From Chrysomallon squamiferum (lineage: Eukaryota > Animalia > Mollusca), in NCBI GenBank assembly GCA_012295275.1, contig CM022675.1:6138001-6202000 (forward strand): a stretch of DNA of 64,000 nucleotides. Direction: 5' to 3'. A program made the position numbers and the translations under genes. Each line of letters begins with the position of its first letter. The first letter of the stretch is position 1. Below, piece after piece: positions 10,301 to 62,364 of this stretch. Below the pieces are notes generated by a model. It saw nothing but the letters and a program-made list of their open reading frames with translations. It was not told the DNA's origin and did not search any database.

Positions 10301-11081
10301 CATAACGGTGAGGTTTGTCACTCTAAGATAGGGGCAGTGTGATACTGAGTCGACTGAAAGTCGAGACTCTGGTTTAAGAACAATTTTTACTTTTCGAACA
10401 AATGTTATATATCATTAAAGTATTTAACATATAGAAGTTAAATATCTTCTTAATTATTACTTCTAACTGATTACAGACATCGTGTAATTAACAGATAAAC
10501 ATAAAAAATCGAAAAATAGGGATATCAGCCAATTTACTTTTGTCAAATAAATTAGAAACATATAGAGGTTATCTGTGTCATATTTGTTAATTATGTAAAT
10601 ACACAGTAATAGCACCTACACAAAAACGACAAAAGAAATAAACTGTAAATTTCATAACCAACAACAACAACAAAAAAAAAAAAAAAAATAGAACTAACAA
10701 AAAAGAACAAATTGGAAATAGAAAATAGTATAACATAAACTAAATCTGCGTAACTAATCAAATGCAGTAAATGTTGTTATTCTCAGTCGATAAATTAAAT
10801 TTATTTCCCAGTGTAACACTTACTTATTATATATCAATCATTGTTAGAAATACAGCTATTTCGTAATCTGTTACTGTACCACACTTTGTAATAATACACT
10901 TCACCCCGCCAAAACTAAATCTTGTTTAAACTTGAATACTGAACTGGCGAGTATCTTCTCTTTTAAATTGTACAAATGAAAAACGATACTCATAATAATA
11001 ATAATAATAATAAATATATATCTGTCTATCTATATATCTATATATCTATCCATCTATGTGTCTATTATTCCATTCATATAT

Positions 11082-11120
<39 letters not shown>

Positions 11121-14100: not shown

Positions 14101-14560
14101 GAGTGGCTGATGTGCAATTTTTGCGTCAATGAATTAACATTTTTATTATTTTTTGTTATTTTTTATTATTAATATTTATTTTACATTTATTTTCACATGT
14201 CATGTTTGAAATACTCCATCTTTTTAGTTTTTAGTCATAATATTTATTATTCGATTCTAAAGTGATTAAAATTGCACAGGTTAAAACTGATACAGGATCA
14301 AAAATCTTTAAACAACACACCATACATTTCTGTTCTCAAACTAACTCGAGTGTGCACACAGAAGAAATCTGATTTGTAACACTCGGATTTAAAACACGTG
14401 TCTACAGATCTCCTAAGAGCTATCCTGTTTAGTACATAGTCATGTGTTTGAGATATTAATCTTTTTTTTTTGGTTCTTAGTACGCATAAATGAGAGAGGG
14501 TCAAAGATAATCCTTGATATCTGTGAATAGAAAATTGGATATAATGCGTCAAACAGTAAT
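2294..14560 (+). repeat. Mosaic of nested, direct segmental duplications of non-coding blocks
   Basis: 2294-3640 matches 6626-7640. 3830-5780 recurs in pieces at about 7740-8125, 9445-10600, 10605-12360 and 12930-13500. 8125-9160 matches 13500-14560. Confidence 0.9.
4800..4941 (+). promoter_or_regulatory. Putative promoter / non-coding first exon module (copy 1; others at about 10080-10219, 11540-11683 and 32180-32319)
   Basis: A locally CpG-rich block (ctcgagaattcacgcgagatt...ggcggcagtcgcagcgc) ends in a strong 5' splice site, GAG|GTAAGT, with GT at 4936. A homologous block lies upstream of gene 2. Confidence 0.5.
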
Positions 14561-14944
14561 GATAATAATAATAATAACAATAACAATAATAATAATAATA
14601 GTAATAATAATAGTAATAGTAGATTGTACGAATCAAAAACGATACACATAATAATAATAATAATAATACATTTTTATGAAAATTCTCTGAAATGAGTCAA
14701 ATTTTTACAGATGGTGAAAACTAGTCTACAAAAAATCTATTAGTATTTCAACGAAATTATGTTCAGTCATGTTTTTGTCTTTCTTTTTTTTTAATTTTAT
14801 TTATTTATTTTATTTTATTTGTTTTTGTACACCGCAGCTCAAAGTTTTAAACAGTACAATAATACTAAAACCAAAATAATATATTACACACTCACACATA
14901 CACAGATACACACATACACACACACACACTCACACACATACACA

Positions 14945-15127
14945 GAGGGTTTGATCGATCTACGTCCGTCCTCTAGCGACGTAAACATCAAACGTCAATA
15001 CAGCAGCGCGACTTAAACAATTTTTTGTGAGCTGCGCGGAAGAATACTCCGTTACGCTACGTTTTGGGAAAGATGGCGTCGTTTTGGTCACAGCACACAG
15101 ACTTTGGGTACCACGTGCTTTGTTTAT

Positions 15128-15192
<65 letters not shown>

Positions 15193-15290
15193 TTTGAGTT
15201 GTTTTGTGATCTTTTGCCCTTCAGTATGTCTCCCAAACGTAAGGCAGGATTTTCCGGTGTAGTCCGTCGAAGAAAAGGAAAGGGATAACA
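14945..15290 (+). promoter_or_regulatory. CpG-rich putative promoter with a YY1-like motif
   Basis: Many CpGs in an otherwise CpG-poor region; AAGATGGCG at about 15070-15078; followed by a (CT)n tract and a cccttcag acceptor. Confidence 0.45.
15132..15188. repeat. (CT)n microsatellite
   Basis: Direct reading. Confidence 0.95.
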
Positions 15291-18200
15291 TTTGAAGTGA
15301 AACTGGATATTATTAAAATGGAGAGAAAGGGAAAATCCAGTTTTATTTGTCATAAGGGTATTGTTCTCATTTTTTTTATTTTTTTTTATTACCGTTTTAA
15401 TTTTGTCATTTGAGTCAGAATATGTACAAACAGGTGATTCTGTTGACGAAACAAAGTAAGAAAGCTTTTCATCCTAATTGACAACGCGTCTCAAAAACGG
15501 TTATTGCTACACTTGGCGGAAGTCGTAATTCCCCGAGAACAAAATATATCTAACTCAAGAAATGTGGCTTCATTTACGTAAAAATACATTTCTTGAGAAT
15601 GCGAACGTGATTCTGTTAGGTAATTTGATAACTGACATAATATCTATCAGATTTTTTTACGTCTAAGTAGACATGTAGTAAAACTGATTTCCTTAGTCCT
15701 GGTCAATTAAGACTGTATTAAAGCTGGGGTTGTTGTTGTTTTTTTGTTGTTTTTTCATTTATTTACATTTTTTTTTTTTTTTAATTTCTTTTTTTTACTT
15801 CGCGTTAATAGAATAGTTTTCAGAGAAAATCTTCTATTGAAATCAAGGAGCCAAAGAAACGATAACAACAAAGCAAAATCTGTTGGGACTTTATTGCTAT
15901 TAATATCTTTGTTGTTGTTGTTGTTATTGTTATTATTATTATTATTATTATCGTTCAAAATGCGTGCCGCTACTTATAAAACCATTTTAGTTTATAAAAT
16001 AACGGAACTTCCCTTAATTATATAATACAGCTTCTACAAAAATTCTTATATAATCTAATGATGAAATAAAAATTCTAACACTGCAGTTTGTGTGAAGTCG
16101 AAACGATAGGCAGATCAGTCAGTTTACTTTGTTTACAAAATCAGAAATGTGACATCAATGCACTTTTCTTGCAGAGGTTATCTCTGTTATATTTGTTAAT
16201 TACGTGAAGATAGACTGAGCAATGACATTTTTAGTGTAGTCAAAAAGCTGAATTTCTCAGAATCATTAATTGAGAAAAATGACTTTGGAAGTCTGGCCTT
16301 GAGTTCATAGCAACCATGCATTTTTAGGCACCTTGACGTCAAAAACTTTGAGAAAGGAAGTCTGGGTAGTTTCAGCAAGAATGAATTAGAACTTATCTGT
16401 GTTCCCTCCAGAGTAGTTACACTTTTCTGAGTTTAAAGAGTGGCTAAACTGACATTTTTGCCCCCATTTAATTGTATTTTGATTATTATTATTATTTTTT
16501 ATCATCATTATTATTTGTTTACATTGTAGTTTGACGTGACATGTTTGATATTCTGCATTTTAAACGTATTTAGTCATAATACTCATTATTACATTACAAG
16601 GTGTTAAAATAACACAGAGTGTCATTTAAAACTTCAAATTGATATAGGTATAAAAATCTTTAGCCAACACATCATAACTTTCTTTTAGATTATGTTGTTC
16701 TGTTGGTTTGTTGAGTTTGTGATCCTAAAATTCTGGAAACAAAATAATAGTTTTCGTCCCAGAGCAGATGAGACAGTAGTCAGCAAAACCTGAAGTAGGC
16801 AGACTCGAATGTTATCTGACCAATCAGCATGCTCCTGTCAGCCTGGGCGTAGCAACTAAACTGCATTGTTTACATGTAAATCATTGAAGTATCTTACTTT
16901 TAATTGTCCAAAACTGCTATGTAGCAGACTTTAATAGAAATAACATAAATAAGGAAAGCTACGATTGGTGCAATGAAAACTGGCAGTGAAATTTAAATAG
17001 GAAAGATTCATAAAGGTGTGATTTAAAAAGTGTTCTACTGTAGATTAGTTTGTACTTCTTTGGGTGAAAGATGAATCCATTATTGAGGGCTTTATGCACA
17101 AATCCTAAGTATGATGATAAACAATAAATCAGTTCAAAATATCACTGTCCGAAAAAGTAATTAATGTTTCTTTGGTTTCTTAAAGAAATTGTCTTTCACT
17201 GCATTGTCTGTAATACCACACAAATTTGTAAAACTTTCATGAGAATGTTCACATTCAACATGTTTAAATATTGACCGCTATTTAAATAGCACAAATAGAA
17301 TGACACAATACACTTATTTGCAAGCAAACGAAACATCATTTAACTACAAAAGTTTTTTGATGTCTGTCTGCAATTGCATATTATGTAAAGATACCATAAA
17401 AACAGAGAAGCTGGAGCAGGCATATTTCATTCTTCTTAATCATAGGTCCATTGTTCTGTATTTATCAAAGGAAAGGAAAGAATAGCTTAAGGATTCCAGC
17501 AGATGGAGTTTTCAAAGGCTAATTGCTATTAAATCAGTAGTCAGGGACTCTATATGAAACAGTAGAAAAACAAAGTATCAAAAAATAAGTTCCCAGTGTC
17601 TTAGAAACATCAGTTATTTGTATTTTAATACATAATGCAATGTGTGGAGGACATTTTTTGATATGTTTATTTGCCAGGTATGTGTTGATCAAAGATTATC
17701 ATTATTATTATTTGGAAGAAAGAATGTATTTGTGATTTTTCTTCACAGGTGAGGGTTTGATGTTTTTCAAATGCTCAGTCATGTTAGTTCTTTTCAATTT
17801 ATTTTTTTTTTCTTGCTTAAATCAATTTTCAACAATATTTGTATATCTCTTCAGACTCTTTACAGAATGTAGCTTCAGTTTTCCTATAAACATAGTAACA
17901 AAGAAAAGTGTTCTTCAAAAAAAAAAAAAAAAAAAAAAAAAAATTAAAAAAAAAAAAAATTGGATTGAAATTCCCTTAACATTTGAAATTTCAAAGTTGA
18001 CAGTAACTATTGTCATCTTAAACTGGTTTTCTTATATAATAATCTGGAGTTCAAGGGTAAAACACATACAAACACACACACACACATATATATATTTATT
18101 TATTATGAAATTTTAGATAACCCCAGTGGAATACAAAATATATATACACACAGGCACACATGCATATATACTTATGCGCATGTGTGCGTGTGTGTGTTTG

Positions 18201-18335
18201 TGTGTTTATTTAACAGAATCCAATGTCACAATATAAAAACTAGAACATACATTAAAATTTGTAACGTAATATTTCTTATTGTTACTGTCTTATTTGTTTT
18301 TCTTTCTTTATATATATATATGTGTATATATATAT

Positions 18336-18436
<101 letters not shown>

Positions 18437-18483
18437 TAATATTAGCAATCTATCAGTATTAAAACTGATTCTTTACAGTTCAG

Positions 18484-18588
18484 CCAATATGGATGATGAA
18501 AAAGAGGATTCAGACGACATCACAGCTACAGCCACTTCAGACTCGGCCACTGCACAGCCACAACTGTCAAGTATTGCATCTTGTGAAG
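18484..18588 (+). CDS. Duplicated acidic N-terminal exon (MDDEKEDSDDITATATSDSATAQPQLSSIASCE), a possible extra or alternative first coding exon of gene 1
   Basis: ttcag| acceptor and G|gtaatt donor; 105 bp, phase 1-1; ATG at 18489; paralogous to exons 20794-20949 and 35677-35823; can splice in frame to 20794. Confidence 0.5.
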
Positions 18589-19285
18589 GTAATTAATCAC
18601 ACAATATTTCTCTACAATGTAGTTTACTACTTTGATGGGTAGACATAAACAGAAACAATTATTATTTATCTCTGCAACAGTGCAATTTCTCAGCTTATTG
18701 TTAAATGTCAGACAATTCTACTCTGACAGTGGACTGAAGTATTATTTATTTCTGTTGATTTTACTTTCATGTTAAAGTGTATGCTGATAATTTTAAAGTT
18801 ATAGCACTATTGGAGGAAATAAAGAATTAGTTTGATCTGTACACACACAGTTTTCTGATTTATATGTACACACAAACACACATTTCTCATTAACATTATT
18901 AAACCAATTACGTTTTTGGTCACATTTGTAATGGTCTGTGTACTTCAGTGTTTTTAAAAGATCACTCTAAATATTGAAACACTGTAAGAAGTACCATTAT
19001 CGTCTCCAGTGAATACTGAAATACTACACAAAGTATCATTATTATCTCAATTAAATATTGAAATACTACACAAAGTATACATAAAAAAACCAACAACAAC
19101 GTCAGTCATTTTAATAATAATAGCAGTAATTATAGCAAAGTCAATAAAAAAGATTGCTTTTTTATGACGAACTTTTAATTTGTTGTTGTTATTATGTTGC
19201 TTTTAAACCTATCAATAGAACAACATGTAATAGTATCAATCTAAAAGGCTAACATTTGTATTAAAACTGATACTTTATTGTTCGG

Positions 19286-19432
19286 CAAATATGGATGCTT
19301 CAAAAGAAGATTCAGTCAATTCTAAAACTAGAGTTGTTCCTTTGTCTGATAACAACACAGCTGCATTTACTTCTAACTCAGATACTGTACACGATTTACA
19401 GCCACAAGTGTCAAGTATCACATCTTATGAAG
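19286..19432 (+). pseudogene. Dead copy of the acidic N-terminal exon
   Basis: Reads MDASKEDSVNS...QPQVSSITSYE from the ATG at 19291, but the acceptor reads ttcgg rather than ttcag and the GT donor is lost. Confidence 0.6.
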
Positions 19433-20419
19433 GATTTTAATAACTACAAACATTCTTTAATATATGTTTGCAGGCGCATATTATGTAAAGATACCTTAAA
19501 AACAGAGAAGTTGGACGCAGGCATATTTCATTCTGCCTAATCAATGGTCCATTGTTTTGTATTTACCAAAGGAAAGAATAGCTTAAGCGTCCCAGAAGCA
19601 GGCGGTTTCAAAGGCTAATTTCTATTACATGAGTAGTCAGGGACCGTGTAGGAACCAGTAGAAAATAATGTATAGAAAATAAGTTCTTAGTGACTTTGAA
19701 ACATCAGGTATTTGAATTTTGATACATAATGCAATATGTTGAAATGTCTTGATATTTTAAGCTGCCATGGGGAGCAGCGAAACATTAAAAGCACACCCTG
19801 GGTGTGCATGTGACGAAAGATTATCATTATTATTATCTGGAAGAAAGAACTGTACTGTAAAACACATAAAAATACGACAAAAAACACACACACACAAAAA
19901 CACACACATACATATACACATATTTATCTTTCCTGAATTCTAGATAACCCCAGCGGGGGTAATATATATAAATTGTTACTTCAAATCACAGATCCACTCC
20001 TTTTACTTTTAAGCGATGGAATTGAAATTGCATAACTTTAATAGCAACTACAATCACATCCGTTCCTTTTGTTCTTTCTGTGGCACTGTTATAAAAAAAG
20101 CTGTCATTTGGTAAATAAAGTAAGCGAAGTAAGCGATAGCGAAGAAAACGGTCAACACGAGAATTCAGTCAGGGGGGGAAACCAAATCTTTTTCAATGAA
20201 TTTGCCTTTACGGATGAGTATGGTAAGCAACTGTCTATTCTTATTTTCACAGGGTGTAATGTGTAATTAACCTGTGTCAATAACATTTATTATACCTAAA
20301 ATATTAAGGTTTTAATCTGTCGTCCGTGCAGATTATTATTTTGTCTTAGGTCCCCTTATGACCTTTCTCGTATCATTAATCAAAATTAGTTAAACGTATG
20401 TTTTATGACTGTATAATGC

Positions 20420-23400
20420 ATTATTATCAAGTCACCTGTATTTCATAATTAACTGGTGTTGTGTTTATTTCTCTGATGGATAAATAGACTTATTGATTTA
20501 TATAGATTGCTGTCAATTTAGAGTTTATATTCCTTGTTAGGTGGCCATTAAAGCACCTTGTTTCCCTAGACTGAGCCATAAAAAACCTATATAAGGTGTT
20601 TAAGGGTGTGAACCCCGTGATATACACACATACACCTATGCGCATGCGTGTGTGTGTGTGTGTGTGTGTGTTTATTTAACAGAATCCAATGTCACAATAT
20701 AACAACTTAAACGTGTATTAAAAAAATACATATATAGAAATGAATGTAATATTAACAATCTGTCAGTATATAAACTGATATTTTACACTTCAGCCAATAT
20801 GGATGATGAAAAAGCGGATTCAGACAACACCACAGCTGCATCTACTTCTGACTCAGATGATGAAAAAGAGGAGGACAACACCACAGCAGCAACTACTTCA
20901 GGCATGGATACTGCACAGCCACAAGTGTCAACAATCACATCTTGTAACGGTAATTAATAGCACAGTAGTTTTCTACAATGTAGTTTACTAATTTGATGGG
21001 CAGGTAAAACCAAACAAAATTAATTTTTATAAATGTAACAGTGCAGTTTTTCAGTATATTCTTTAATCTCAAGCAGTTCTACTCTGACAGAGGACAAAGT
21101 TATTGTTTATTTCTGTTGTTTTTACTTTCACTTTAAAGTGTGTGCTGATAATTTTATGGTTATAACGCTATTGAACATACACACTTTTCTGATTTATATT
21201 GAAAAAAAACTAACAATTCAAAACCTTTTCTGTCCTGTTTGTTTCACCCATGAAAACGTTAAAGCAAAACACACACCAATTACTATTTGATTACAATCAT
21301 GACTGTTGTAAATATTCTTGAATTTACTTTTGTTTAATACTATAAAGTAATAGTTATTTCTTAGCACCTACAAAAATAATCAGTTAACAAAGAATATTAA
21401 ACAGATTTCTTTTATATAGTTGTATTTAACAATAACACATTTTATTAATACTGTTTGCTGGATTGTTCTATATATAGATATAAAAAAAACATTTTTAGAA
21501 ATTGTTTCTAAGCAGTGCATTTAAGTCAGTTCATTTACCATTTTACAGATCATACAAGAATACAGACAGTGACAGAACAAAATGTAAATATCGGCTTAGT
21601 TCACAATTACCAGGCCCTATCTCATAACAAAAATGTTGTGATAGGAAGACAAACTGTGAACACTAGTAAGTTAAAAACTGAAAGTTTTGGGTTTTGTGTT
21701 TGCAAGATTGATAGATAATCATTAGTACTTTTCTACCAGACTCTGTGATAAAAACAACACATACACACACATATTTCTAAAGTGTGCATGTTTCAGTGAT
21801 TTTAAAAGATCATCAATAAATATTGAAATACTACGCAACGTATATATAAAACAACAATAACAACAATGACAAAATCAATTAGAACAATAAATAAATTAAT
21901 AATATTTTCAAGAAACAGCAACAATAGCAGTACTGATTATAGTAAGATCAATCAGAAAGATATAAAAATAATGTTACACATTTGCTCTTTTAAGACGCAG
22001 CAGTAGTGTAATTGTACAAGTTGCTGTAAAGAATTCTTGTTTACTTGTAAACAATAGAAAATTATTGTTTTTATTTTCATATTATTTCAGTAAAGAGTGA
22101 TGGAAGAGCATCAAATATGAAAGGTGATTTTTTTCCTTACATTGTTTTGAAAAATGTCCTTTAATAACAAGATAATCATCTAGTTGTTTCTAATCTTAAC
22201 ATTCATGAATAAATATAAATTAATTCTTACTAAGAAATAATAAAGTTAATGTTGATATAGTACAAATAATTATAAAAAGAGTTTATAACAGATTTTAATA
22301 TTTTTTAACATGTTGTGATGCAGTGTTTACCACATCAAGGATAAACTCAGTTGATTGGACTCTCTATGTTGAAACAAGAGCAGAAGAAATAGGTGTTGAA
22401 CTTTTGAAGAAGAATGGTGTTGTGATTGTAATAGGCTGTCCAGGTTCAGGAAAGACAACTCTAGCTTTGAGCATGATGAGGCAGATACAAACAGAAGAGA
22501 AAAGAGAATCTTACTTGCTGACTCACCACACTGAATTCAATGATATCCCTGTATCTAAAGATAAAAAATGTATTATTCTCATCGATGATATATTTGGTAA
22601 AACTAACCTTATTTCAGATTTTAGGCTGTCATGGCAACCAAAATTTCCAACGGTCTGGAGTCTTGTTCAGGATGGTTCTGTGAAATGTATTATTACCTTA
22701 CGAAATCAAATATTTGCAGAAAGTAAAAGCAGTTTGAAGGAATTTGATCTGTTTAATGAGAATCATCTTCTTGATCTTCAGAGTTCTGAATTTTGTCTCA
22801 GTTGGGTTGAAATGAATACAATTTTAAACAAATATCTCAAACAAAAAGATGTTACGATGGAGGAACATGACAAAAGGGAGGTCATTTCCAAGTCATGTAC
22901 AGACTTAGGATTTCCTCAGGTGTGTGTGTATTATGTTAGTTCAAGTGAAGCACAAAAAAGAGGAGCTGAGTTTTTCAAAAAGCCTGTAGAATATCTGAGA
23001 GAACAATTGGAAAATATGAAAAGTGATGAATCCTTACAGATCAATTATCTGGTTCTACTGCTGATCATGTTTCGGCAAGGCAGTCTCAGTATTGATTTGT
23101 TGAACCCCTTTGAAAATGATGGTGAAAGTGAAATAATGAAATTAGTAAAACGGCTAGAGCGTGTCTGTCCAAGTCTAAAAAACACAGATCTTGCAGATAT
23201 TGAGAAAACAGCTGATGTAATGTGTGGTACCTATTTGACGCGTTATAACAATAGATACACATTTATTCATCAGTCAGTATTTGACTGTTTGTTTCTGATC
23301 TTTTCATCAAAGTTTCCAACGAAAGCAGCAGAGTTGCTAGAAGTGTGTCCTGTATCCATGTTGTTAGAATATGTTGTGACGCCTGGAGTGTCTAACAAAA

Positions 23401-26400
23401 GTCACATTACAATGACTGTGCAACCTGACTGCTTTGATGTTCTTGCTCGCAGATGTACTGATTTGCTGGCATCAAGCAGTGCCAGAGAAGTTATTTCACA
23501 TCCGTCACTGAAAGATGAAGAGTTTCTAAAATATCTCATTCAGAAAAAACACTTCCATGGTAAATTGTCCGAAATACTGAATCAGAATCTGCAACAAAAA
23601 ATGTATTATTTCGCAGAGAAGGTAGACAAAATTTTCCTTGATATATTTGAGAACATTGTGCTTTCCCATGACAGTCATTCAAAGTGTTGGACAGTATCCA
23701 ACCCGTGTTTGACAGTTGAAGAAATAAAAATAGATTCATCATCTGTTGCAAGTGAGTGTGTTGTGAATGGTCTGAAAACACTGTCGAGGTGTTTCACAAC
23801 ACATCTGTGTAAAATGACATGTAAAATGACAGAAAAGAAAAAAGAACTTTTGAATATTTCTTGTTTGTTTGGTGATGAAGATGTTGTGAAAATGTTGTTA
23901 CAATCAGGTGTTATTCCATCATTAGATACAATCATAGCAGCTGCACGTTCAAAAACCGACAATGTTACCATACTTAAAGAACTGTTACACTGTACAAAGA
24001 TGAATTTGAAAAAGAATTCCCAGTTGTTAGAACTTTCAATTTGTTCATGTAACATAAACATTGCCTCTTTGTTGGCTGACATTATGAACAATAAGAAAGG
24101 GAACATTAAATTCAAGGAAAAAATCGTAAAACTGTTATTGGCTAGGTTCCATTCACAAGTAAGATCACTCATTATTAAATCTGTTGATACAAGCTCTCTT
24201 TTTAAGAAACTGATTACCATTGAAATAATAAACAAAATTGAAAACATTGCCATCATTGCGGCTGGTCAGATGAATTCAGGAGTTATAAAAGAAATAGTAA
24301 AACTGAAACCTGATTGTTTAAATGATGAGAACAGAGATAAAGTTCTCTTAGCAGCAGCAGCATGGGGTTCTGCTGACACAGTGGATTTCCTCATTGACCA
24401 GAGACGTAATCATACACATGAAAACAACTGGAAGAAAAGTCAAGTACTGAAAATAGCAGTGATGTTTAACAATGCACATGTTGTTCAGTGTCTACTTGAT
24501 AAAGGAGCTGATCCTAATGCTAGTGTAGCTGTTAATAAGACATTGATTAAGTGGTTTGAAGCTCAGTTTTCTGGCTCAGATTTAAGGAAATCACTGGTGA
24601 ATGAAATTGCTGATGTTAATAGAACGAACCCTGTGATAAGATCAGCAGTTTGTATGTATAAAATGAGTACACATTTGTCTTTGCTAGATAAAGGAGTTGA
24701 TATTACAATAACAGATAAGAATAAGAATTCAGCTTTACACCTAGCAGCTGCATTTGGATATCTGGATGTTGTGACAATACTGATTGAAAAAGGTGCTAAG
24801 GTGAACAGTATTAACAGCGAAAGTGAAACTCCTCTTTTTGCAGCCCTCACTTCTTATGAACGACAAATATCTCGGAATCGGTATAAAAAGCATCAATCTG
24901 CAAGTGATAAACAATGGAAAGTTGTTTTTTATTTGCTGGAACATGGAGCTGATCCTAATATAACAGACGGTGATAACATGTCTCCTTTGCACATAGCCGC
25001 TAAACTAGGAAATATAGAAATTGTGACAGAACTGGCAAAAAACGTTTTTGATATAAATATTGAAAACAGTGAAGGTAAAACTCCTCTTTTTACAGCTGTG
25101 GAGTACAAACACAACCATGTTGTTTTCTGTCTACTGAAACATGGAGCTGATCCTAACATAACAGACAGCTATAACAATTCTGTTTTACACACAGCAGCTA
25201 AGCTAGGAAATATAGAAATTGTGACAGAACTGGCAGAAATCGTTTCTGATCTGAATATTAAAAACAGTGAAGGCAAAACTCCTCTTTTTACAGCTGTGGA
25301 GTACAAACACAACCATGTTGTTTTCTATCTACTGGAACATGGAGCTGATCCTAATATAACAGACAGTGATAAGAAGTCTGCTTTACACATAGCAGCTAAG
25401 TATGGAGAATTAGAGATAGTGACAGCACTGATTGAAAAAGGTGCTGATGTTAATATTAAAAGCAATACAGGTAAAACTCCTCTTCTTGAACTTACGGGTA
25501 TATGCTTTAATCATAATCTCTGGATTATAATTTTGTGTTTGCTGGAACATGGAGCTGATCCTAATTTAACAGACAGTGATAACAATTCTGTTTTACACTT
25601 AGCAGCTAAACATGGAAAATCTGAAGTTGTGACAGCGCTGATCAAAAAAGGTGCTAATGTAAACATTAGAAACAAAGTAGGTGAAACTCCTCTTCTTAAA
25701 GCTGTACATCATCAATACCTCTGTCATGATTCTCGTAATGAACATTGTGCAGTAGTTTTGTATTTGCTGGAACATGGAGCTGATCCTTTTTTGACAGACT
25801 GTGATAACAATTCTGTTTTACACTTAGCACCTCAACTAAGCAAAATTGAAATTTTTAAAGCACTCATAGAAAAAGGTGTTGATGTCAATATTAAAAACAG
25901 CAGAGGTGAAACTCCTCTTTATACAGCTATAAACAGATATCAATATGGTACATTCTTTGATGATAAACATTGTGAAATAATTTTGTATTTACTTGCACAG
26001 GGAGCTGAACCTAATTTAACAGACTCTGATAACAATTCTGTTTTACACTTAGCAGCTAAACATGGAAAAATAGAAATAGTGAGAGCACTGATAAAAAAAG
26101 GTGTTGATGTAAACATTAAAAACAGTGAAGGTAAAACTCCTCTTTTTACAGCTGTGGAGTACAAACACAACCATGTTGTTTTCTATCTGCTGAAACATGA
26201 AGCTGATCCTAATATAACAGACAGTGCTAAGAAGTCTGCTTTACACATAGCAGCTGAACAGGGAGAAATAGAAATTGTGAAAGCGCTGATAGAAAATTAT
26301 GTTGATGTAAACATTAGAAACAACAAAGGTAAAACTCCTCTTCTTACAGCTATAGAACAATACGTTTTTCGTAATGAACATTGTGCAGTAGTTTTGTATT

Positions 26401-29400
26401 TGCTGGAACATGGAGCTGATCCTTTTTTGACAGACTGTGATAACAATTCTGCTTTATACTTAGCAGCTATGTATGGAAAAATTGAAGTTGTGACAGAACT
26501 GATTGAAAAAGGTGTTGAAGTAAACATTAAAAACAGCAGAGGTGAAACTCCTCTTTATACAGCTATAAACATATGTCAATATGATACATCCTTTGATGAT
26601 AAACATTGCGAAATAATTATGTATTTACTTGCACATGGAGCTGATCCTAATTTAACAGACAGATATGACAATTCTGTTTTACACTTAGCAGCTGAACAGG
26701 GACATATGGAAATTGTGACAGTTCTGATTGAAGAAGTTGCTGAAGTAAATATTGTAAACAAAGAACATAAAACTCCTCTATATGCAGCTGTATACAACAG
26801 ACAGAATGAAGTTGTAGTTTATTTACTTGAACATGGAGCTGATCCTAATATAACAGATGGTGATAATACATCTGTTTTACACATAGCAGTTAAACAAGGA
26901 AATATAGAAATTGTGACAGCACTGATAAAAAACGGTGTTGACATGAATATTAGAAACAGTGAAGGTAAAACTCCTCTTTTTACAGCTGTTCACTACAAAC
27001 AGAACGATGTAGTTTTGTATTTACTGGAACATGGAGCTGATCCTAATTTAAAAGACAGTGACAACAATTCTGTGTTACACTTAGCAGCTAAACAGGGAAA
27101 TATAGAAATTGTCAGAGCATTGATTAATAAAAGTGTTGATGTAAATATTAAAAACAATAAAGGAAAAACTCCTCTTCTTACAGTTATGAACCGCAGACAG
27201 TACAAAATAGCTTTGCATTTACTGGAACATGGAGCTAATCCTAATGTAATAGACAATGATAAGAATTCTGCCTTACATGTAGCAGCAAAACGTGGATTAA
27301 CAGCAGTTGTGAAGGCACTTGTGGAAAAAGGTGTTGATGTAAATACTCCTAATGCAAGGGGACAAACACCTGTCGAGATGGTTGGTGGTAGACGTAGGGA
27401 AAAACAGAAGATTGTTTCCTATTTATTGAGTCATAGTGCTAAGGAAAATTAAATGATAAAAAGTGTTTTGTATAAATATAACTACTAATAATAATATTTA
27501 CTGCATCATGGAGACAAATGTAATTTGACTGGTGACAGGAAAATTGATGACTTGTTCCAAAATGTGAAAAATGACTTTAGATAGAACTGTTGTTGAGATC
27601 ATCATCTATAAAGTCAGACCAAAATTTCTAAGACATCTCCAACATTGACAAAAATATGTTCCGAATCCAGGTTTGTCAGTATAGACATATTGGAGAAAAT
27701 TGACTTTAAAGAAGTTGTGTCATTTGCGATGTGTGCCGTTAGCAACCACTTGTTTATTGTCAAAAGTCAACAAAATTTCACACGAATAATAAGTGAACTA
27801 ACTGTGAAAGCTAAATAGTTCCTTCTTTATTTGTAATGCTATTCATATAGGAATTATATTTTAAAAATAATTTCAACAAATTAATTTAGATTTAGCTGGA
27901 CTCAAATAAAGTTTAATAAAAAAGATTTCTTTAAAACAAAAATAATATATATATATATATGTTTTTAAATTCAGTTATTTTTCTTTCCTGAAAATATTTC
28001 ATCATAAAGCAATATAGAAATAATTCTATGAAAAATAATATTCTCTGAAATAGTTTTTGATATTTAGAAACAACAACAACAAAGAAATAAATGTGATTTT
28101 TATATTGATAAACTGTATTTTGGTCAAAGATTTCATAATGGGATTTTCCATCATTTATTTTGAATGCGTTTTTCTACTTTCTCCAATTATCTGATCCTTG
28201 ACAACAAAAACAGTTCATTCCTTTAGAGATTCTAATAAATCGATTGTGTTCATCTAGCACTATCAATATAATCATCACTGATCTTGTCAGTCCCATTCTG
28301 GTTATCTGAATCATCATGAATTGAAACTCCATATTCATCAATACCTTCGTCAGAATCTGACAACAAACTATTCACTTGGGCTTTGTTCTATGTACATAAT
28401 GAACAACGTTCTTGTAAATGAGGATTCAAAACAGAAGTATGTTGGGGATATCCCAAATGGGAGATGGGGGAATAATATAATTTTAAAAATGTGCTTTTCT
28501 TTATTTGGTTTACATAAAGAATGATCTTTATATAAAGAATCATCTATAATTAATGATGATTATCAATAGGACAGGGTTACAAAGCAAATACATCTAAGAG
28601 ACATTTCTTCCGAACTGAAAACAACAACAAACAAACAAACTACTTTATTATTAACTGTAAACTGTTATAAATCATTTAGCAAATGAAAGTGAAATACAAA
28701 ATTACTTATTTAAGCATGTGTTTTTTGTGAAATGCGATGCTGTCTTTAGAATACCGAGAAAGCTTAGCACAGAGTTCATACGCCAATCAGCATACTGGAT
28801 ATGCCACACCATCATCTGTATCTTGGCAACAAGACATTTTGTTTATCTTTATAAATTATTATTTACTTTCGTTGATCATGATATCACTGTTAATATGATA
28901 ACAACTATTATAAAATGAGACACAAGATATTTCTGGCTTTTCAGTGATAACAGGATATCGGGGATATCCCTGATAGAAGGACCAAGATTATTATAATAAT
29001 ATTTTGTTCTTAGTTTTGTTCAGATAAATAATGATGATTGTTAGTAAGAGACGATTACTAATTGCAGGTGTTAGACAATTTATATTATAGATACATTAAC
29101 AAGACTGAGAATACTTAAAACAGAAGTGATATTCCTGTTGCTACTTTTGTATTTTATGAGTGACAACTGACTCAGTTTGCTGTCTCGAATAACATTTGAC
29201 TGAATTCTTCTTCCCATTTTGAAACAGATTATTTAATTAAATTAAATTAATATCCCAAAATAAATGTTCAAATAGTTTTGTTTGAAACAGATGTGGATAA
29301 TAATGAATATAACTGTTGTTGTGAAGGAAACTAATTTATGTTTGTAATTTCTGAGGTATGAAGTTTATCTTTATTATGTAGTTCATTCTGATAGACATTG

Positions 29401-32319: not shown

Positions 32320-33509
32320 GTATATTTAATTTATTTCTTTATATTCAGTTTCATTTTTTAATGTTATGTTAGTGTATTTACATGCAATATTAATTATAGC
32401 TCATGAGCCATGATGGGGGCGTGGCAGAAATATTTTACACAAACATATTACACACCATTAATGTATTTAAAATATAAAAGTAAAATATCTTCTTAATTAT
32501 TACTTCTAATTGTTTACGTGTATCGTGTAATTAACAGACACATATAAAAAATCGAAACGATGTTTGTTAATTACAATGAAAAGTGACTGAGCTGTGAGAT
32601 TTTTAGTACTGGACGTCTGGGACCGTATGGGAATACCGTAGAAAATAATGAATTTCGAAATAAGTCACCCGTCTCTTAGAAATATCAGTTACAAAGACAT
32701 TTGTATCACTAGGCGGGCGATACTATTATTATTATTACTTAGAAGAAAGGATTGTCATGTTCATTGTTTTCTAAACATACAAAACTTACAAATTATTAAT
32801 TGCTAACGAAGATAAAAAAAAGTCAAGATATTACTTGTCAAATGCTCAGATATTTTAGTACTATTCATTTTGAAATATTTATTTTCCATTGTTTCTTTCT
32901 TTGCTGTGTTGTTGTTGTTGTTGTTCTTCTTCTTCTTATTCTTTATTTAAATCAATTAACAACAATGTTTGTATATATACATACATATATATATTTGTGT
33001 GTATATGGATGTCTGTGTTTGTGTACAAGTGAAGATATATCTGCGTTTTCTCAAGGTATTTTCAGTTTTACTAAACATATAATAATGCACCAAATTCTGC
33101 ATCGAAAACAATATTGTGGTTGAAATTCCCTTGACATTTGAAATTTCAGTGTTGATATTGTCTTTTGTTTTAGAATGATTACTCTGTCATTTTTAACTGG
33201 CCTCCTTGTGAGATAATCTTGAGACAAGAAAAAACACAACATTAAGGAAAATGTTCTTCTTTTATACAGTATTTCTAGCTTTTCTATATAGTGTGAAGTT
33301 CCATGTGTATCGAAATAATGATTCGAAGATAATGGCCGTTTATCCTAATTACTAAAGATTCATAAAGGTATGGTTACAAAATGTCCTCCCCAAAAGAAGT
33401 TTTCTAGTATATTTTATGTGGTTCTTTAGAAGAAAGATGAATACTTAGTTAACTGATGATTTTGTGCACAAATCCTAAAACCAATATAAAATTACCTACT
33501 ATATGAAAT

Positions 33510-35623: not shown

Positions 35624-35681
35624 TGAATGTAATATCAACAATCTATCAGTATGTAAACTGATATTTTACACTTCAGCCAAT

Positions 35682-38600
35682 ATGGATGATGAAAAAGAGG
35701 ACAACACCACAGCTGCATCTACTTCTGATTCAGATGATGAAAAACAGGACAACATCACAGGAGCAACTACTTCAGGCATGGATACTGCACAGCCACAAGT
35801 GTCAACAGTCACATCTTGTAACGGTAATTAATAGCACAGTAGTTTACTAATTTGATGGGCAGGTCAAACCAAACAAAATTAATTTGTATAAATGTAACAG
35901 TGCAGTTTTTCAGTATATTGTTTAATCTCAAGCAGTTATTGTTTATTTCTGTTGTTTTTACTTTCACTTTAAAGTGTGTGCTGACAATTTTATGGTTATA
36001 ACACTACTGAACAGACACACTTCTCTGATTTATATTCATAAAAAATTAACAATTCAAAAACTTGTATGTCCTGCAAAACACACACCAATTACTATTTTGA
36101 TTACAATCATGACTGTTGTAATTATTTTTGAATTTACTTTTGTTTATTTTAATACTGTAAAGTAATACTTATTTTTTAGCACCTACAAAAATAATCAGTT
36201 AACAAACAATATTAAACCGATTTTTTTTATATAGTTATATTTTAAAATAATACATTTTATTAATACTGTATCCTGTACAGTTCTATATATAGATAAAAAA
36301 AAAATGTGTAGAAGTTGTTTCTAAGCTATGCGTTTAAGTCAGTTCATTTACCATTTTACAGATCACACAAGAACACAGAGAGTGACAGAACCAAATGTAA
36401 ATATCAGCTCAGTTCAGAATTACTATGCCCTATCTCATAACAAAAATGTTGTAATAGGAAATCAAATTGTGAACACTAGTAAGTTAAAAACTGAAGGGTT
36501 TTGTTCTAGCAAAACTGATAGATAATCATTAGTACTTTTCTACAAGACTCTGTGATCAGAACAACACACAGACACACACGCACACACACACACACATCCA
36601 CACACATCACACACACATGCACACATATTTCTAAATGGTGTGCATGTTTCAGTGATTTTAAAAGAGCATTAATAAACATTGAAATGCTACGAAAAGTATA
36701 TATAAAACAACAACAATGACAAAATCAATTAGAACAATAAATAAATTAATAATATTTTCAAGAAACAGCAACAGTAGCAGTACTGATTATAGTAAGATCA
36801 ATCAGAAAGATATAAAAATAATGTTACACATTTGACCTTTTATGACTCAGCTGTAGTGTAATTGTACAGGTTGTTGTTAATAATTCTTGTTTACTTGTAA
36901 ACAATAGAAAATTATTGTTTTTATTTTTATATTATTTCAGTAAAGAGTGATGGAAGAGCATCAAATATGAAAGGTGATTTTTTTTCCTTACATTGTTTTG
37001 AAAAATGACCATTAATAATATGATAATCATCTAGTTGCTTTTAATCTTAGCATTGATGAATAAATATTATAAACTAATTCTTACTAAGAAATAATAAAGT
37101 TAATGTTGATATAGTACAAATAATTATAAAATAGTTTATAATAGATTCTAACATTTTTTAATTTTTTCTGATGCAGTGTCTACAACATTAAGGATAAACT
37201 CAGTTGACTGGAATCTCTATGTTGAAACAAGAGCAGAAGAAATAGGTGTTGAAATTTTGAAGAAGAATGGTGTCGTGATTGTAATAGGCTGTCCAGGTTC
37301 AGGAAAGACAACTCTAGCTTTGAGCATGATGAGACAGATAGAAAAAGAAGAGAAAAGAGAATCTTACTTGCTGACTCATCACACTGAATTCAATGATATC
37401 CCTGTATCTAAAGATAAAAAATGTATTATTCTCATCGATGACATATTTGGTAAAACTAATCTCATTTCAGATTTTAGGCTGTCATGGCAACCAAAATTTC
37501 CGACGGTATGGAGTCTTGTTCAGGATGGTTCTGTGAAATGTATTATTACCTTACGAAATCAAATATTTGCAGAAAGTAAAAGCAGTTTGAAGGAATTTGA
37601 TCTGTTTAATGAGAAACATCTTCTTGATCTGCAGAGTTCTGAATTTTGTCTTAGTAGGGATGAAAAGAATACAATTTTAAACAAATATCTCAAACAAAAA
37701 GATGTTACAATGGAGGAAGATGACAAACGGGAGGTAATTTACAGAGCATGTACAGAGTTAGGATTTCCTCAGGTATGTGTTTATTATGTTAATTCGACTG
37801 ATGCACAAAAAAGAGGAGTTGAGTTTTTTAAGAAACCTGTAGAATATCTCAGTGAACAATTGGGAAATATGAAAAATGATCAATCCTCACAGATCACTTA
37901 TCTGGTTCTACTGCTGATCATGTTTCAGCAAGGCAGTCTCAGTATTGATTTGTTGAACCCATTTGGAAATGAATGTGACATAATGAAATTAGTAAGAGCG
38001 CTGGAGGGTGCCTGTCTGAGTTTAAAACACACTAGTCTCACACATATAAAGGCAACAGCTGATGTAATGTGTGGCACCTATTTGAATTGTTACAACAATA
38101 GATACACATTTATTCACCAGTCAGTGTTTGACTCTTTGTTTCTGATGTTTTCATCAGAATTTCCAAAGAAAGCAGCAGAGTTGCTAGCAGTGTGTCCTGT
38201 CTCCATGTTGTTAGAATATGTTGTGACACCTGGAGTGTCTAATAAAAGTCACATTACAATGATTGTGCAACCTGACTGCTTTGATGTTCTTGCTCGCAGA
38301 TTTACTGACTTGCTGGCTTCAAGCAGTGCCAGAGAAATTATTTCACATCCGTCACTGAAAGACGAAGAGTTTCTAAAATATCTCATTGAGAAAAAATACT
38401 TCTATGGTAAATTGTCCCAAATACTGCATCAGAATCTTCATCGAGTAAGGCATTATTTAGCATTTGAGGTATGTGAAGATTTCCTTCATCAATTTGAGAA
38501 AATTGTACATTTCAATGACAGCGATTCAAAGTGCTGGAAATCATCCTACCGGTATTTGAGAGTTAAAGAAAGGAAGATGTATTCGTCATCTGTTGCAAGT

Positions 38601-41600
38601 GAGTGTGTTGTGAATGGTCTGAGAACACTGTCGAGCTGTTTCACAACACATCTGTGTAAAATGGAGTTCACAGATCAGGAAAACGAACTTTTGAATATTT
38701 CTTGTTTGTTTGGTGATGAAGATGTTGTGAAAATGTTGTTACAATCAGGTGTTATTCCAACACTAGATACAATCAGAGCAGCTGCATGTTCAAAAACAGA
38801 CAATGTTACCATACTCAAAAAAGTGTTAGAATATAAAATTCTTACCATAATTAAAAAACGTTCAAGGGGTAAAAACGTGGCTTTGAATCAGCATTCCTGT
38901 TTGTTACAACTTTCAATTTATTCATATAATATGAACATTGCGTGTTTGTTGGCTGACATTATGAACTGTGAGGAAGGCCACAGTAAATTCAAAGAAAAAA
39001 TTGTAAAACTGTTATTGATTAGGTTCCATACACAAGTAAAACCACTCTTTGATGTATTTGTTGATATAAGCCATCTTTTTAAGAAACTGGTTACCGCTGA
39101 CATAATTAACAAAATTGAAAACATTGCTATCATTGCTGCTGGTCAGAGGAATTCAGTTGTTATAAAAGAAATAGTAAAACTGAAACCTGATTGTTTAAAT
39201 GATGAGAACAGAGATAAAGTTCTTTTAGCAGCAGCAGTGTGGGGTTCTGTTGACACAGTCGATTTTCTCATTGACCAGAGACGTAATGATACAGGTGAGA
39301 AAAACTGGAAGAAAAGTCAAGTACTGAAAGTAGCAATACTGTTTAACAATGCAGATGTTGTTCAGTATCTACTTGATAAAGGAGCTGATTGTAATGCTAA
39401 TGTATCAGTTGATAGGTCATTGACTGATTGGTTTGAAAAGAAAACTGGATTAGAATGCTTGGATTCTGATTCGCCTCTCCACACATCAGCTCGGCTTGGT
39501 GACTTAGATTTGTTGAAATCACTGGTGGAAAGAAATGCTGATGTTAATGCAGTGAACAGTAAGGGAAAAACTCCACTTCACGATGCTGTGATTATCAAGG
39601 AACATAGAAAAGAATTAGCTTTGTTTTTGCTAGAAAATGGAGCTGATATTAACATTACAGATCAGAATAAGAATTCAGCTTTACATCTAGCAGCAGAACT
39701 TGGATATCTTGATATTGTGACAATACTGATTGAAAATGGTGCTAAGGTGAACATTATTAACAACGAAAGCAAAACTCCTCTTTTTGCAGCCCTCACTTCT
39801 TATGAACAACATCTATCTCTCAATTGTTATCAAAAGCATCCATCCGCAAATGATAAACTTGGGAAAGTTGTTTTGTATTTACTGGAACATGGAGCTGATC
39901 CTAAAATAACAGACGGTGATAACAAATCGGTTTTACACATAGCAGCTAAACTAGGAAATATAGAAATTGTGACAAAACTGGCAGAAAACGTTTTTGGTAT
40001 GAATATTAAAAACAGTGAAGGTAAAACTCCTCTTTTTACAGCTGTGGAGTACAAACACAACCATGTTGTTTTCTATCTACTGGAACATGGAGCTGATCCT
40101 AATATAACAGACAGTGATAACAATTGTGTTTTACATTTAGCAGCTGAATATGGAAAAATAGAAATTGTGACAGCGCTGATAGAAAAAGGTGTTGATATAA
40201 ATATTAGAAACAGTGAAGGTAAAACTCCTCTTTTTACAGCTGTGGAGTACAAACACAACCATGTTGTCTTCTATCTCCTGGAACATGGAGCTGATCCTAA
40301 TATAACAGACAGTGATAACATGTCTGCTTTACACATAGCAGCTAAGTATGGAGAATTAGAAATAGTGACAGCACTGATTGAAAAAGGTGCTGATGTTAAT
40401 ATTAAAAACAATACAGGTAAATCTCCTCTTCTTGAACTTATGAATATATGCTTTGATGAATATCATGAGGACTTTGATCGTGATCCCTGGATTATAATTT
40501 TGTGCTTGTTGGAACATGGAGCTGATCATAATTTAACAGACAGTGATAACAATTCTGTTTTACATCTAGCAGCTAAATGTGGAAAAATTGAAACTGTGAC
40601 AGCACTGATAGAAAAAGGTGCTGATGTCAATATTAAAAACAATGAAGGTAAAACCCCTCTTCTTACAGCTATAAATCATCAATACCGCTGGTACGATTCT
40701 CGTAATGATGAACATTGTGCAGTAGTTTTGTGTTTACTGGAACATGGAGCTGATCCTTTTTTGACAGACCGTGATAACAATTCTGTTTTACACTTAGCAC
40801 CTCAACTAAACAAAATTGAAATTTTTAAATCACTCATAGAAAAAGGTGTTGATGTAAATATTAAAAACAGCAGAGGTGAAACTCCTCTTTATACAGCTAT
40901 AAACAGATATAACTATGGTAGATACTTTGATGATAAACATTCCGAAATAATTTTGTATTTACTGGCACAGGGAGCTGATCCTAATTTAACAGACAGTGAT
41001 AACAATTCTCTTTTACACTTAGCAGCTCAACATGGAAAAATAGAAACTGTGACATCACTAATTGAAAAAGGTGTTGATGTAAACATTAGAAACAATGGAG
41101 GTGAAACACCGCTACTTACAGCTATAAATCATCAATACCTCCGTTATGATTCTCGTAATGAAGACCACTGTGCAGTAGTTTTGTATTTGCTGGAACATGG
41201 AGCTGATCCTTTCTTGACAGACTCTGATAACAATTCTCTTTTACACTTAGCAGCTGAAGATGGAAAAATAGAAATAGTGACAGCACTGATAGAAAAAGGT
41301 GTTGATGTAAACATTAGAAACAGTGAAGGTGAAACTGCTCTTTTTAGAGCTGTAAACTCTTACCAAAACAAAGTAGTTTTGTATTTGATGGAACACGGAG
41401 CTGATCCTAATTTAACAGACAGTGAAAACAATTCTGTTTTACATCTAGCAGCTAAGTATGCTAAATTAGAAATTGTCAAATCACTGATAGAAAAAGGTGC
41501 TGATGTAAACATTAAAAACAATGAAGGTGAAACTCCTATTCTTACAGCTATACATCATCAATACCTCTGTTATGTTTCTCGTAATGAACGTTATCCAGTA

Positions 41601-44245
41601 GTGTTGTATTTGCTGGAACATGGAGCTAAACCTAATATAACAAACAGTGATAACAATTCTGTTTTACACTTAGCAGCTAGATATGGAGAAATTGAAGTTG
41701 TGACAGCACTGATTGAAAAAGGTGTTGATGTAAACATTAAAAACAATCAAGGTGAAACTGCTCTTTTTGAAGCTGTAAACTCTTACCAAAACAAGATAGT
41801 TTTGTATTTGCTGGAACATGGAGCTGATCCTAATTTAAGAAACAGATATAAGAATTCTTCTTTACACATAGCAGCTGAGAATAGAAATATAGAAATTGTG
41901 ACAACTCTGATTGAAAATGGTGCTAAAGTAAATATTAGAAACAAGAAAGGTGAAACGCCTCTCCTTACAACTGTAAATCATGTTAGGGATTTTCACCTTT
42001 TTAAAGATATATATTGCAAGGTGGTTTTGTACTTACTGGAGCATAGAGCTGATCCTAATTTAACAGACAGTGATAACAATTCAGCTTTACACATAACAGC
42101 AAAAAATGGAAAACTTGAAGTTGTGACAGCACTGATTGAAAAAGGTGCTAAAGTAAATATTGTAAACAATGAACATAAAACCCCTCTATATACAGCTGTA
42201 AACTACAGACAGACTGAAGTTGTTGTTTATTTACTGCAACATGGAGCTGACCCTGAATTAAGAGACAGTGATAACAATTCTGTTTTACACATAGCAGCTA
42301 AACAAGGAACTATAGAAATTGTGACATCACTGATAAAAAACGGTGTTGATATGAATATTAGAAACAATGAAGGTAAAATTCCTCTTTTTACAGCTTTTCA
42401 CTACAAACAGAATAATGTAGTTTTGTATTTATTGGAATATGGAGTTGATCTTCATTTAAAAGACAATAACAACAATTCTGTTTTACACATAGCAGCTAAA
42501 GAGGGAAATACAGAGATTGTCAGAGCATTGATTAATAAAAGTGTTGATGTAAATATTAGAAACAATGAAGGTGAAACTCCTCTTCTTACAGCTGTGATCC
42601 ACAAACAGTCCGAAATAGTTTTGTGTTTACTGGAACATGGAGTTGATCCTCATTTAAAAGACAATGACAACAATTCTCTTTTACACATAGCAGCTAAAGA
42701 GAGAAATATAGAAATTGTCAGAGCATTGATTAATAAAAGTGTTGATGTAAATATTAGAAACAATGAAGGTGAAACTCCTCTTCTTACAGCTGTGATCCAC
42801 AAACGGTCCAAGATAGTTTTGTGTTTACTGGAACATGGAGCTGATCCCAATTTAACAGACAGATATAACAATTCTGATTTACACACAGCAGCTAAACAAG
42901 GAAATATAGAAGTTGTGAAAGCACTGATAAGAAACGGTGTTCGCATGAATATTAGAAACAATGAAGGTGAAAGTCCTCTTCTTACAGCTGTGAACCACAA
43001 ACGGTCCAAGATAGTTTTGTATTTACTGGAACATGGAGCTGATCCTAATTTAACAGACATTGACAAAAATTCTGCCTTACATGTAGCAGCTAAACGTGGA
43101 TTAACAGAAGTTGTGATGGCACTTGTGGAAAGAGGTGTTGATGTAAATATCAAAAACAATCAAGATGTAACTCCTCTTTTTACAGCTCTAAACAAAAGAA
43201 TGGGGAAAACAGCTTTGTATTTACTGGAACGTGGAGCTGATCCTAATTTAACAGACATTGACAAAAATTCTGCCTTACATGTAGCAGCTAAACATGGATT
43301 AACAGAAGTTGTGATGGCACTTGTGGAAAGAGGTGTTGATGTAAATATCAAAACAATCAAGATGTAACTCCTCTTTTTACAGCTCTAAATAAAAGAATGG
43401 GGAAAACAGCTTTGTATTTACTGGAACGTGGAGCTGATCCTAATTTAACAGACATTGACAAAAATTCTGCCTTACATGTAGCAGCTAAACATGGATTAAC
43501 AGAAGTTGTGATGGCACTTGTGGAAAGAGGTGTTGATGTAAATATCAAAAACAATCAAGATGTAACTCCTCTTTTTACAGCTCTAAATAAAAGAATGGGG
43601 AAAACAGCTTTGTATTTACTGGAACGTGGAGCTGATCCTAATTTAACAGACATTGACAAAAATTCTGCCTTACATGTAGCAGCTAAAAATGGATTAACAG
43701 AAGTTGTGATGGCACTTTTGGAAAGAGGTGTTGATGTAAATATCAAAAACAATCAAGATGTAACTCCTCTTTTTACAGCTCTAAATAAAAGAATGGGGAA
43801 AACAGCTTTGTATTTACTGGAACATGGAGTTAATCCTAATGTAATAGACAAACATAAAAATTCTGCCTTAGGTGTAGCAGTTGAACATGGATTAACAGAA
43901 GTTGTGATGGCACTTGTGGAAAGAGGTGTTGATGTAAATATCAAAAACAATCAAGATGTAACTCCTCTTTTTACAGCTCTAAATAAAAGAATGGGGAAAA
44001 CAGCTTTGTATTTACTGGAACATGGAGCTGATCCTAATGTAATAGACTATGATGAAAATTCTGCCTTACATGTAGCAGCTATACGTGGATTAACAGAACT
44101 TGTGAAGGCACTTGTGGAAAGAGGTGTTGATGTAAATACTTCTAATGCTATGGGACAAACACCTCTCGAGATGGTTGGTGGTAGACGTAGGGAAAAAAAG
44201 AAGATTGTTTCCTATTTATTGAGTCATGGTGCTAAGGAAAATTAA
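35682..44245 (+). CDS. NLR-like gene 2: acidic N-terminus + RHIM-like motif + nSTAND3-type NTPase + longer ankyrin array. Exons 35682-35823, 36362-36478, 36941-36973, 37177-44245; 1-bp frameshift at about 43350 (about 2453 aa if corrected)
   Basis: Same exon structure and NTPase motifs as gene 1. ORFs 37176-43367 and 43397-44245 join if one A is restored in atcaaaa(a)caatc. The C-terminus (EMVGGRRREKKKIVSYLLSHGAKEN) matches that of gene 1. Confidence 0.86.
43035..44140 (+). repeat. Coding tandem repeat: about 5.5 near-identical 198-bp units (two ankyrin repeats each)
   Basis: Units start at about 43035, 43233, 43430, 43628, 43826 and 44024 (ggagctgatcctaat...). Confidence 0.9.
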
Positions 44246-51569: not shown

Positions 51570-62353
<10,784 letters not shown>

Positions 62354-62364
62354 CTGGAAGAGAT

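Follow-up and report, generated by a model that had tools for sequence, protein, structure and literature searches.

Fungal NLRs have been shown to signal by receptor-nucleated amyloid, and the same has been proposed for NLRs of bacteria. The N-terminal motif of fungal NWD2 forms an infectious amyloid that activates HET-S upon ligand binding (PMC4344463, partial text). The fungal NLRs (NWD2/HET-S and the PP motif of PNT1/HELLP) and bacterial BASS3 are all built from a short N-terminal motif, a STAND NTPase and superstructure-forming repeats (PMC4344463, PMC5485727 and bioRxiv 2020.01.06.895854, all partial texts). In animals, the RHIM and cRHIM motifs described in this literature sit on kinases and adaptors, on sensors of nucleic acids and on receptors for peptidoglycan or LPS; one STAND example, from amphioxus, was recognized by sequence only. 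This protein, BF82280, is a RHIM-NACHT-repeat protein in which the RHIM is N-terminal, and RHIMs of amphioxus proteins occupy positions usually held by death folds (Kajava 2014, PMC4262963).

The canonical RHIM tetrad is (V/I)-Q-(V/I/L/C)-G, and deep mutagenesis of RIPK1 and RIPK3 found an aliphatic interface at positions -8, -6, 0 and +2, plus the glycine at +3, to be essential for nucleation (bioRxiv 2026.02.19.706818, partial text). The C-terminal strand of the RHIM has a conserved asparagine followed by an apolar residue (Kajava 2014, PMC4262963). The arthropod cRHIM (PGRP-LC/LE, IMD, Pirk and shrimp SRB2) is defined operationally, by amyloid formation and IMD binding. Its core is VxxG, in which only the glycine is fixed (PMC13506858 and PMC10268257, partial texts), and VHIG is the tetrad of shrimp IMD (PMC10268257, partial text). 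Partial texts of PMC8195603, PMC9815663 and PMC7889193 were also in our literature base. Within this base, which took in neither subscription journals nor figures nor bioRxiv supplements, we found no mention of RHIM with nSTAND3, of nSTAND3 with molluscs or of a RHIM-STAND protein in molluscs. An oyster RHIM-containing protein was reportedly described by Liu in 2024 and could overlap the mollusc family considered here.

The whole stretch of DNA analyzed (the window) is 64 kb of AT-rich animal DNA with a GC content of about 0.30. Comparison of the window with itself gave two tandem genes, the 21-31 kb region aligning with 35.6-48.5 kb. Each gene has one very large exon that encodes an nSTAND3 NTPase (PF20720; 85.2 bits for gene 1 and 93.6 bits for gene 2 against a cut-off of 27.2) and, after it, a long ankyrin array. 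Hence, both have the features by which an nSTAND3-ankyrin NLR-like protein is recognized: PF20720, Walker A and B motifs and C-terminal ankyrins. The closest relatives were Gigantopelta aegis proteins (39-48% identity), with those of Haliotis next, which makes it likely that the DNA is from a gastropod. The exons of the two genes are as follows.

Gene 1 exon A, 20794..20949, forward strand: 156 nt, phase 1-1, with splice sites and an RNA joint to exon B.
Gene 1 exon B, 21549..21665, forward strand: 117 nt, phase 1-1, encoding the RHIM/cRHIM-like motif.
Gene 1 micro-exon, 22091..22123, forward strand: 33 nt, phase 1-1, with joints in three of four RNA runs.
Gene 1 large exon, 22324..27452, forward strand: nSTAND3 (E 4.9e-24), Walker A and B, 26 ankyrin stretches.
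Gene 2 exon A, 35677..35823, forward strand: 147 nt, phase 1-1.
Gene 2 exon B, 36362..36478, forward strand: predicted 117-nt exon with the same motif, Tyr at -8; 13 of 117 nt (11.1%) differ from gene 1.
Gene 2 micro-exon, 36941..36973, forward strand: identical to the gene 1 micro-exon.
Gene 2 large exon, 37177..44245, forward strand: nSTAND3 (E 1.3e-26), 35 ankyrin stretches in the first frame, frame change near 43350.

Gene 1 exon A has a likely start ATG at 20799 and an in-frame stop is present in the UTR-like exons upstream of it. The head that it encodes is acidic and rich in serine and threonine (50 residues with 13 D/E, 2 K/R and 17 S/T). In the predicted gene 1 protein the VVIG tetrad of exon B occupies residues 80-83 and Walker A is at residue 138. 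The micro-exon likely encodes the start of a helix that precedes the NTPase, as judged from the AlphaFold model of a homolog, P0042.

The window also holds pieces that seem related to these genes. Extra exon A copies that have no exon B of their own lie at 18484-18588 and about 19266-19433, where RNA joints and loose ends were seen; these may be alternative or tandem acidic heads of gene 1 or remnants of duplication. An exon resembling a 5'-UTR and ending in a GTAAG donor is present five times (near 4924, 10202, 11665, 12769 and 32301), four of the copies carry a short upstream ORF, and the host region is segmentally repeated over 2-16 kb. We read these repeated exons as signs of birth-and-death duplication. 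A lone ankyrin-repeat fragment with in-frame stops lies between genes 1 and 2 (33501-33875). In the gene 2 ankyrin array the frame changes within 43341-43367, where one unit has a run of four A residues and four sister units have five; this reflects either an indel from sequencing or a genuine truncation. Tandem satellite arrays at 54381-56421 and 62363-63368, whose units repeat roughly every 67-69 bp and every 50-56 bp, give rise to spurious ORFs.

Each exon B is 117 nt long and of phase 1-1, with a pyrimidine tract and AG acceptor and a GTAAGT donor, and the peptides and coordinate ranges first assigned to the two exons proved correct. RNA contigs from four runs (X1 to X4) of one study were aligned to window positions 9000-24500 at 85% likeness, a range that, of the two genes, reaches gene 1 only. 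The joints 20948>21548, 21665>22091 and 22121>22322 were all of the GT..AG type. Run X1 gave all three at a depth of 30, run X3 gave 21665>22091 and 22121>22322 at a depth of 15, run X2 gave 22121>22322 at a depth of 73 and run X4 gave none of the three. In addition, eight X1 contigs ran from an exon A copy into exon-B-like sequence. Since a single study supplied all of the runs, and only 10-14% of the sampled words are found in them, the evidence of splicing applies to the gene family or a close relative rather than to this allele. Given the joints around it, exon B is spliced in this gene family. Thus, the earlier note's view of a separate 117-bp exon stands on the AG/GT ends and the family RNA contigs. 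Its placement of the motif about 50 residues before Walker A was right as to an N-terminal position but overlooked the 33-nt micro-exon, with which the distance from the tetrad glycine becomes 55 residues.

One X2 contig (depth 23) joined 21639 to 21716, with 31 different letters in place of the end of exon B; these spell a VVFG tetrad with a stop soon after. The contig is perhaps from a truncated or motif-only paralog or from an unspliced pseudogene.

The tetrad is VVIG in both genes and does not satisfy the canonical (V/I)-Q-(V/I/L/C)-G pattern. The spacing is that of a RHIM, as first noted, with leucine at -6, valine at 0, isoleucine at +2 and glycine at +3. All four interface residues are present in gene 2 (Y, L, V and I at -8, -6, 0 and +2) and three of four in gene 1, which has glutamine at -8. 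We take the conserved RHIM asparagine to lie at +6; the exon B motif has threonine or isoleucine there and asparagine at +8 instead. The motif has the cRHIM VxxG core with its fixed glycine, a criterion of little specificity. The bare anchor pattern turned up in 3.5% of shuffles of exon B of gene 1 and in 1.6% for gene 2; hence the bare pattern is not striking alone.

Searches with the exon gave little. A Pfam RHIM check on both exon B peptides returned no family at E<=10, under HMMER filters that drop weak matches on 38-residue queries. Single-sequence searches of the PDB found nothing at E<=10 for gene 1 and one chance-level match for gene 2 (2wlc, E=4.4). The ESM Atlas had no usable match for exon B, and all of its matches to the P0042 tail were at TM<=0.40. 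Among metagenome contigs there were no matches to the core DNA and one weak locus, L001 (36% over 44 residues). The AlphaFold monomer of the exon B peptide was uninformative (pLDDT 56, pTM 0.20). Membership in the canonical RHIM family therefore falls away, there being no Pfam RHIM match, no PDB match for gene 1, no glutamine at +1 and no asparagine at +6. By its sequence the exon B motif is not a canonical RHIM and is cRHIM-like by the loose definition. An upstream pseudo-repeat, formerly proposed as a second motif, was rejected because its glycine is missing from gene 2 and its -6 position is not hydrophobic. What survives of the RHIM/cRHIM-like reading of the earlier note is the spacing, the VxxG core and the placement near the N-terminus of a STAND-ankyrin protein, to which recurrence in relatives (below) can be added; canonical RHIM membership, the second repeat and the weight put on an invariant core do not survive.

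The closest systems can now be set beside the locus. With the mammalian RHIMs (RIPK1, RIPK3, ZBP1 and TRIF) exon B shares the hydrophobic residues at -6, 0 and +2 (in gene 2 also -8), the glycine at +3 and, as predicted for the homolog P0042, disordered flanks; it differs in lacking Gln +1, Asn +6 and a Pfam match, and its host is a receptor NTPase, not a kinase or an adaptor. The VxxG core with only glycine fixed is shared with the arthropod cRHIMs, which reside in other host proteins and another phylum and were defined by function. Like the fungal and BASS3 receptors, genes 1 and 2 place a short N-terminal motif ahead of a STAND NTPase and C-terminal repeats and have no N-terminal globular domain, the repeats here being ankyrins. 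Unlike them, they are animal genes with nSTAND3 in place of NACHT or NB-ARC, an acidic 50-residue head and no GxQxG, and the 64-kb window holds no neighboring effector gene with the same motif. The N-terminal position on an animal STAND protein is shared with BF82280, which is a single named chordate example with a NACHT domain, whereas the hosts here belong to a mollusc nSTAND3-ankyrin family that has expanded and whose tetrads diverge.

We favor, with modest confidence and by analogy, the reading that the exon B motif is a cRHIM-like amyloid signaling tail that would pass receptor activation to a partner. Judged against the fungal systems, the receptors would likely signal by seeded amyloid fibers. 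As in NWD2/HET-S, the ankyrin array would bind a ligand and the STAND domain would exchange nucleotide and then oligomerize. From the clustered motifs a fibril of stacked beta-arches would then nucleate, its interior lined by Leu-6, Val0 and Ile+2 and its chain turning at Gly+3. This fibril would template a partner with a compatible motif, either a RIPK1/IMD-like adaptor or an MLKL/HeLo-like effector, leading to NF-kB signaling or cell death. The acidic head might, speculatively, keep the resting tail soluble. A motif profile run against 913 candidate partners recovered four proteins, all of them seeds, and the motif region of homolog P0014 matched none of three candidates at E<=10, both by a method that is weak for short motifs. 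RIPK1-like proteins with a conserved RHIM have been described from a bivalve (PMC12119088, partial text), hence a candidate class of partner exists.

Recurrence was assessed in relatives found with the NTPase region. The best 150 of 1092 cluster representatives (E<=0.001), with earlier relatives, made 154 proteins, 152 of which were located. Eighty-four had at least 55 residues before Walker A; many of the others look 5'-truncated and were excluded. The region examined was 30-150 residues upstream of Walker A and near-duplicates were kept. Anchors defined from the literature (hydrophobic at -6, 0 and +2, glycine at +3) were present in 11 of the 84 listed relatives; shuffled sequences averaged 4.7, and 14 of 2000 shuffles reached 11 or more. 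With a hydrophobic residue at -8 as well, the count was 6/84 against 1.2 (4/2000 as high). A glutamine tetrad was present in only one of the 84, which is not significant (295/2000 as high). Two of the 11 anchor matches sit in HEPN- or DED-labeled proteins and look like chance. A fourth pattern with a polar loop (7/84 against 0.6) was given no weight because it was written after the sequences had been seen.

A matrix built from the 11 homolog matches and applied to the held-out non-anchor positions gave scores of 6.9 for gene 1 and 6.3 for gene 2. Both outscored all 157 anchor-matched controls (100/100 downstream sites and 57/57 six-frame sites). A leave-one-out scan found 15 of 79 listed relatives at p<=0.05, eight of which were seeds; the non-seeds numbered 7/70 against 3.5 expected. 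The bearers, from the 20 proteins looked up, belong to Gigantopelta, Potamilus, Sinanodonta, Argopecten, Mizuhopecten, Ylistrum, Pecten and Solemya. De novo motif discovery on the upstream regions did not recover the motif, near-paralogs and HEPN segments being dominant. A profile of 11 hand-picked motif rows had five matches at E<=10 among 177,635 PDB sequences, the fourth of which was the RIPK3 RHIM chain 6jpd (E=2.5), aligned on the RHIM; as the seeds had been chosen by RHIM anchors this is partly circular and only suggestive. Taken on these comparisons, the RHIM-like motifs on mollusc nSTAND3-ankyrin receptors probably form a real family invisible to Pfam.

The motif could also be functional without forming amyloid: a short linear motif that docks as a beta-strand on a folded partner, or on its own NTPase or ankyrins as an autoinhibitory clamp. 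We regard this as unlikely, but it is the strongest of the rival explanations. In the AlphaFold model of P0042, residues 1-70 have pLDDT 45-62 and no secondary structure, the fold beginning at residue 72, and the motif tail is thus predicted to be disordered in the monomer of this homolog, which favors the amyloid reading. Alignment to the model leaves about 10 residues from the tetrad to the first predicted helix. Such a gap seems short for a fibril bearing bulky domains; it counts against the amyloid reading and suits a docking motif, as does the absence of the canonical Gln and Asn. Weak PDB matches point the same way: besides 2wlc there is 4h7o (E=0.89, motif profile), both of them acetyltransferases of the left-handed beta-helix type, so the pattern may be a generic strand-turn-strand. 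Against this rival, the tail does not pack against the NTPase in the P0042 model, and the 15 motif-positive listed relatives have their tetrads anywhere between 55 and 139 residues before Walker A. Moreover, a close relative, P0014, which appears to be a fusion of two genes each with a short head, carries in both the tetrad VQFG, a natural and functional RIPK3 tetrad (PMC12119088, partial text); this also speaks for the amyloid reading.

The other serious rival is that exon B encodes a neutral linker, rich in Asn, Val and Ile, in an AT-rich genome, its likeness to RHIM arising by chance and being amplified by selection by eye; we consider this quite improbable. The low GC content and the ease with which shuffles give the anchors are as expected of such a linker, as are the lack of any family, structure or Atlas match, the failure of de novo discovery and an enrichment among non-seeds that is only two-fold. 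Divergence between the paralogs also fits a linker, since exon B differs more than the three neighboring introns (7.1, 6.5 and 8.6%) and has pN 0.124 and pS 0.078, whereas codons 1-230 of the NTPase exon (pN 0.038, pS 0.164) are under purifying selection. The 11-codon core, earlier put forward as invariant, has no non-synonymous changes, but only 1.8 would be expected at the intron divergence of 7.2% (P(0)=0.17), and between two recent duplicates its invariance is weak evidence alone. The flanks have 11 non-synonymous changes against 4.6 expected (P=0.0075), and the contrast of core with flanks (0/25 against 11/64 non-synonymous sites changed) gives p=0.03 with borders chosen post hoc; selection on the core is judged from these two paralogs only. 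The pattern of core and flanks resembles that of RIPK3, in which the tetrad is fixed and the flanks evolve fast (Fay et al., PMC12119088, partial text), and to this extent favors the amyloid reading.

A neutral linker does not readily explain the enrichment of anchors upstream of the NTPase over within-region shuffles, nor the fit of the non-anchor positions of exon B to the homolog motifs beyond the exon's own composition (P 0.003-0.012, with 11 or 8 seeds). Similar motifs in gastropods and bivalves also argue against it, since they fall on separate branches. A quick tree was built from 86 NTPase regions; on it the motif label required eight changes, at least five of them forced by well-supported branches. 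Genes 1 and 2 grouped with seven Gigantopelta proteins in a clade of 99% support in which six of nine rows were motif-labeled, and within a scallop clade, also of 99% support, the motif, DED and HEPN labels differ among sister proteins.

The N-terminal slot holds other modules elsewhere in the family. A Pfam scan of 79 of the 84 listed relatives (five long ones left out) gave, among the matches listed, at least 14 HEPN_DZIP3, two Death, two DED, one CARD, one caspase, two SAM and three DUF4559; each figure is a minimum from the best 25 of 28 and best 25 of 53 families, and N-terminal placement was by eye, being exact for P0139. The RHIM family was in none of the full single-protein Pfam listings of the homologs. 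An apparent mutual exclusion of motif and globular N-terminal domain (p=0.029) was dropped because P0139 has a DED; when this is counted the comparison is 13:2 against 40:24 and is not significant (p=0.12). Two other features of these proteins were seen. P0055 and P0116, both from scallops, have in their N-termini, at residues of about 63-75, a GxExNPGP stretch, which resembles 2A/StopGo ribosome-skipping peptides. P0004 and P0007 have a precomputed family, PF28177, that was absent from our local Pfam scan.

The remaining alternative, an amyloid decoy or brake (Pirk-like or viral-RHIM-like) that caps fibrils rather than starting a signal, draws on the non-canonical tetrad behind a strongly acidic head and on the RNA contig that departs from exon B just within the codons of the tetrad, where it encodes a similar tetrad and then a stop. 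It is very improbable, since the motif is borne by a complete receptor whose Walker A and B are intact, with a long ankyrin array and an NTPase under purifying selection, and the truncated form was seen in one contig.

Under the amyloid signaling reading a wider possibility opens, which we offer tentatively and with less confidence than the reading itself: that molluscs have a large lineage-expanded family of nSTAND3-ankyrin NLR-like receptors that would signal by amyloid templating as do fungal and bacterial NLRs, and that their diversified RHIM-like motifs, on phase 1-1 exons open to shuffling, can be exchanged for death-fold, HEPN and caspase modules. As Pfam misses RHIM-like tails, current annotations do not show them. 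The divergent tails are short peptides suited to direct fibril and cross-seeding tests. If the proposal is true, there would be NLR amyloid signalosomes in animals and motif families beyond the canonical RHIM, and this would suggest a link from the expanded immune repertoires of molluscs to effectors that lack death-fold domains.
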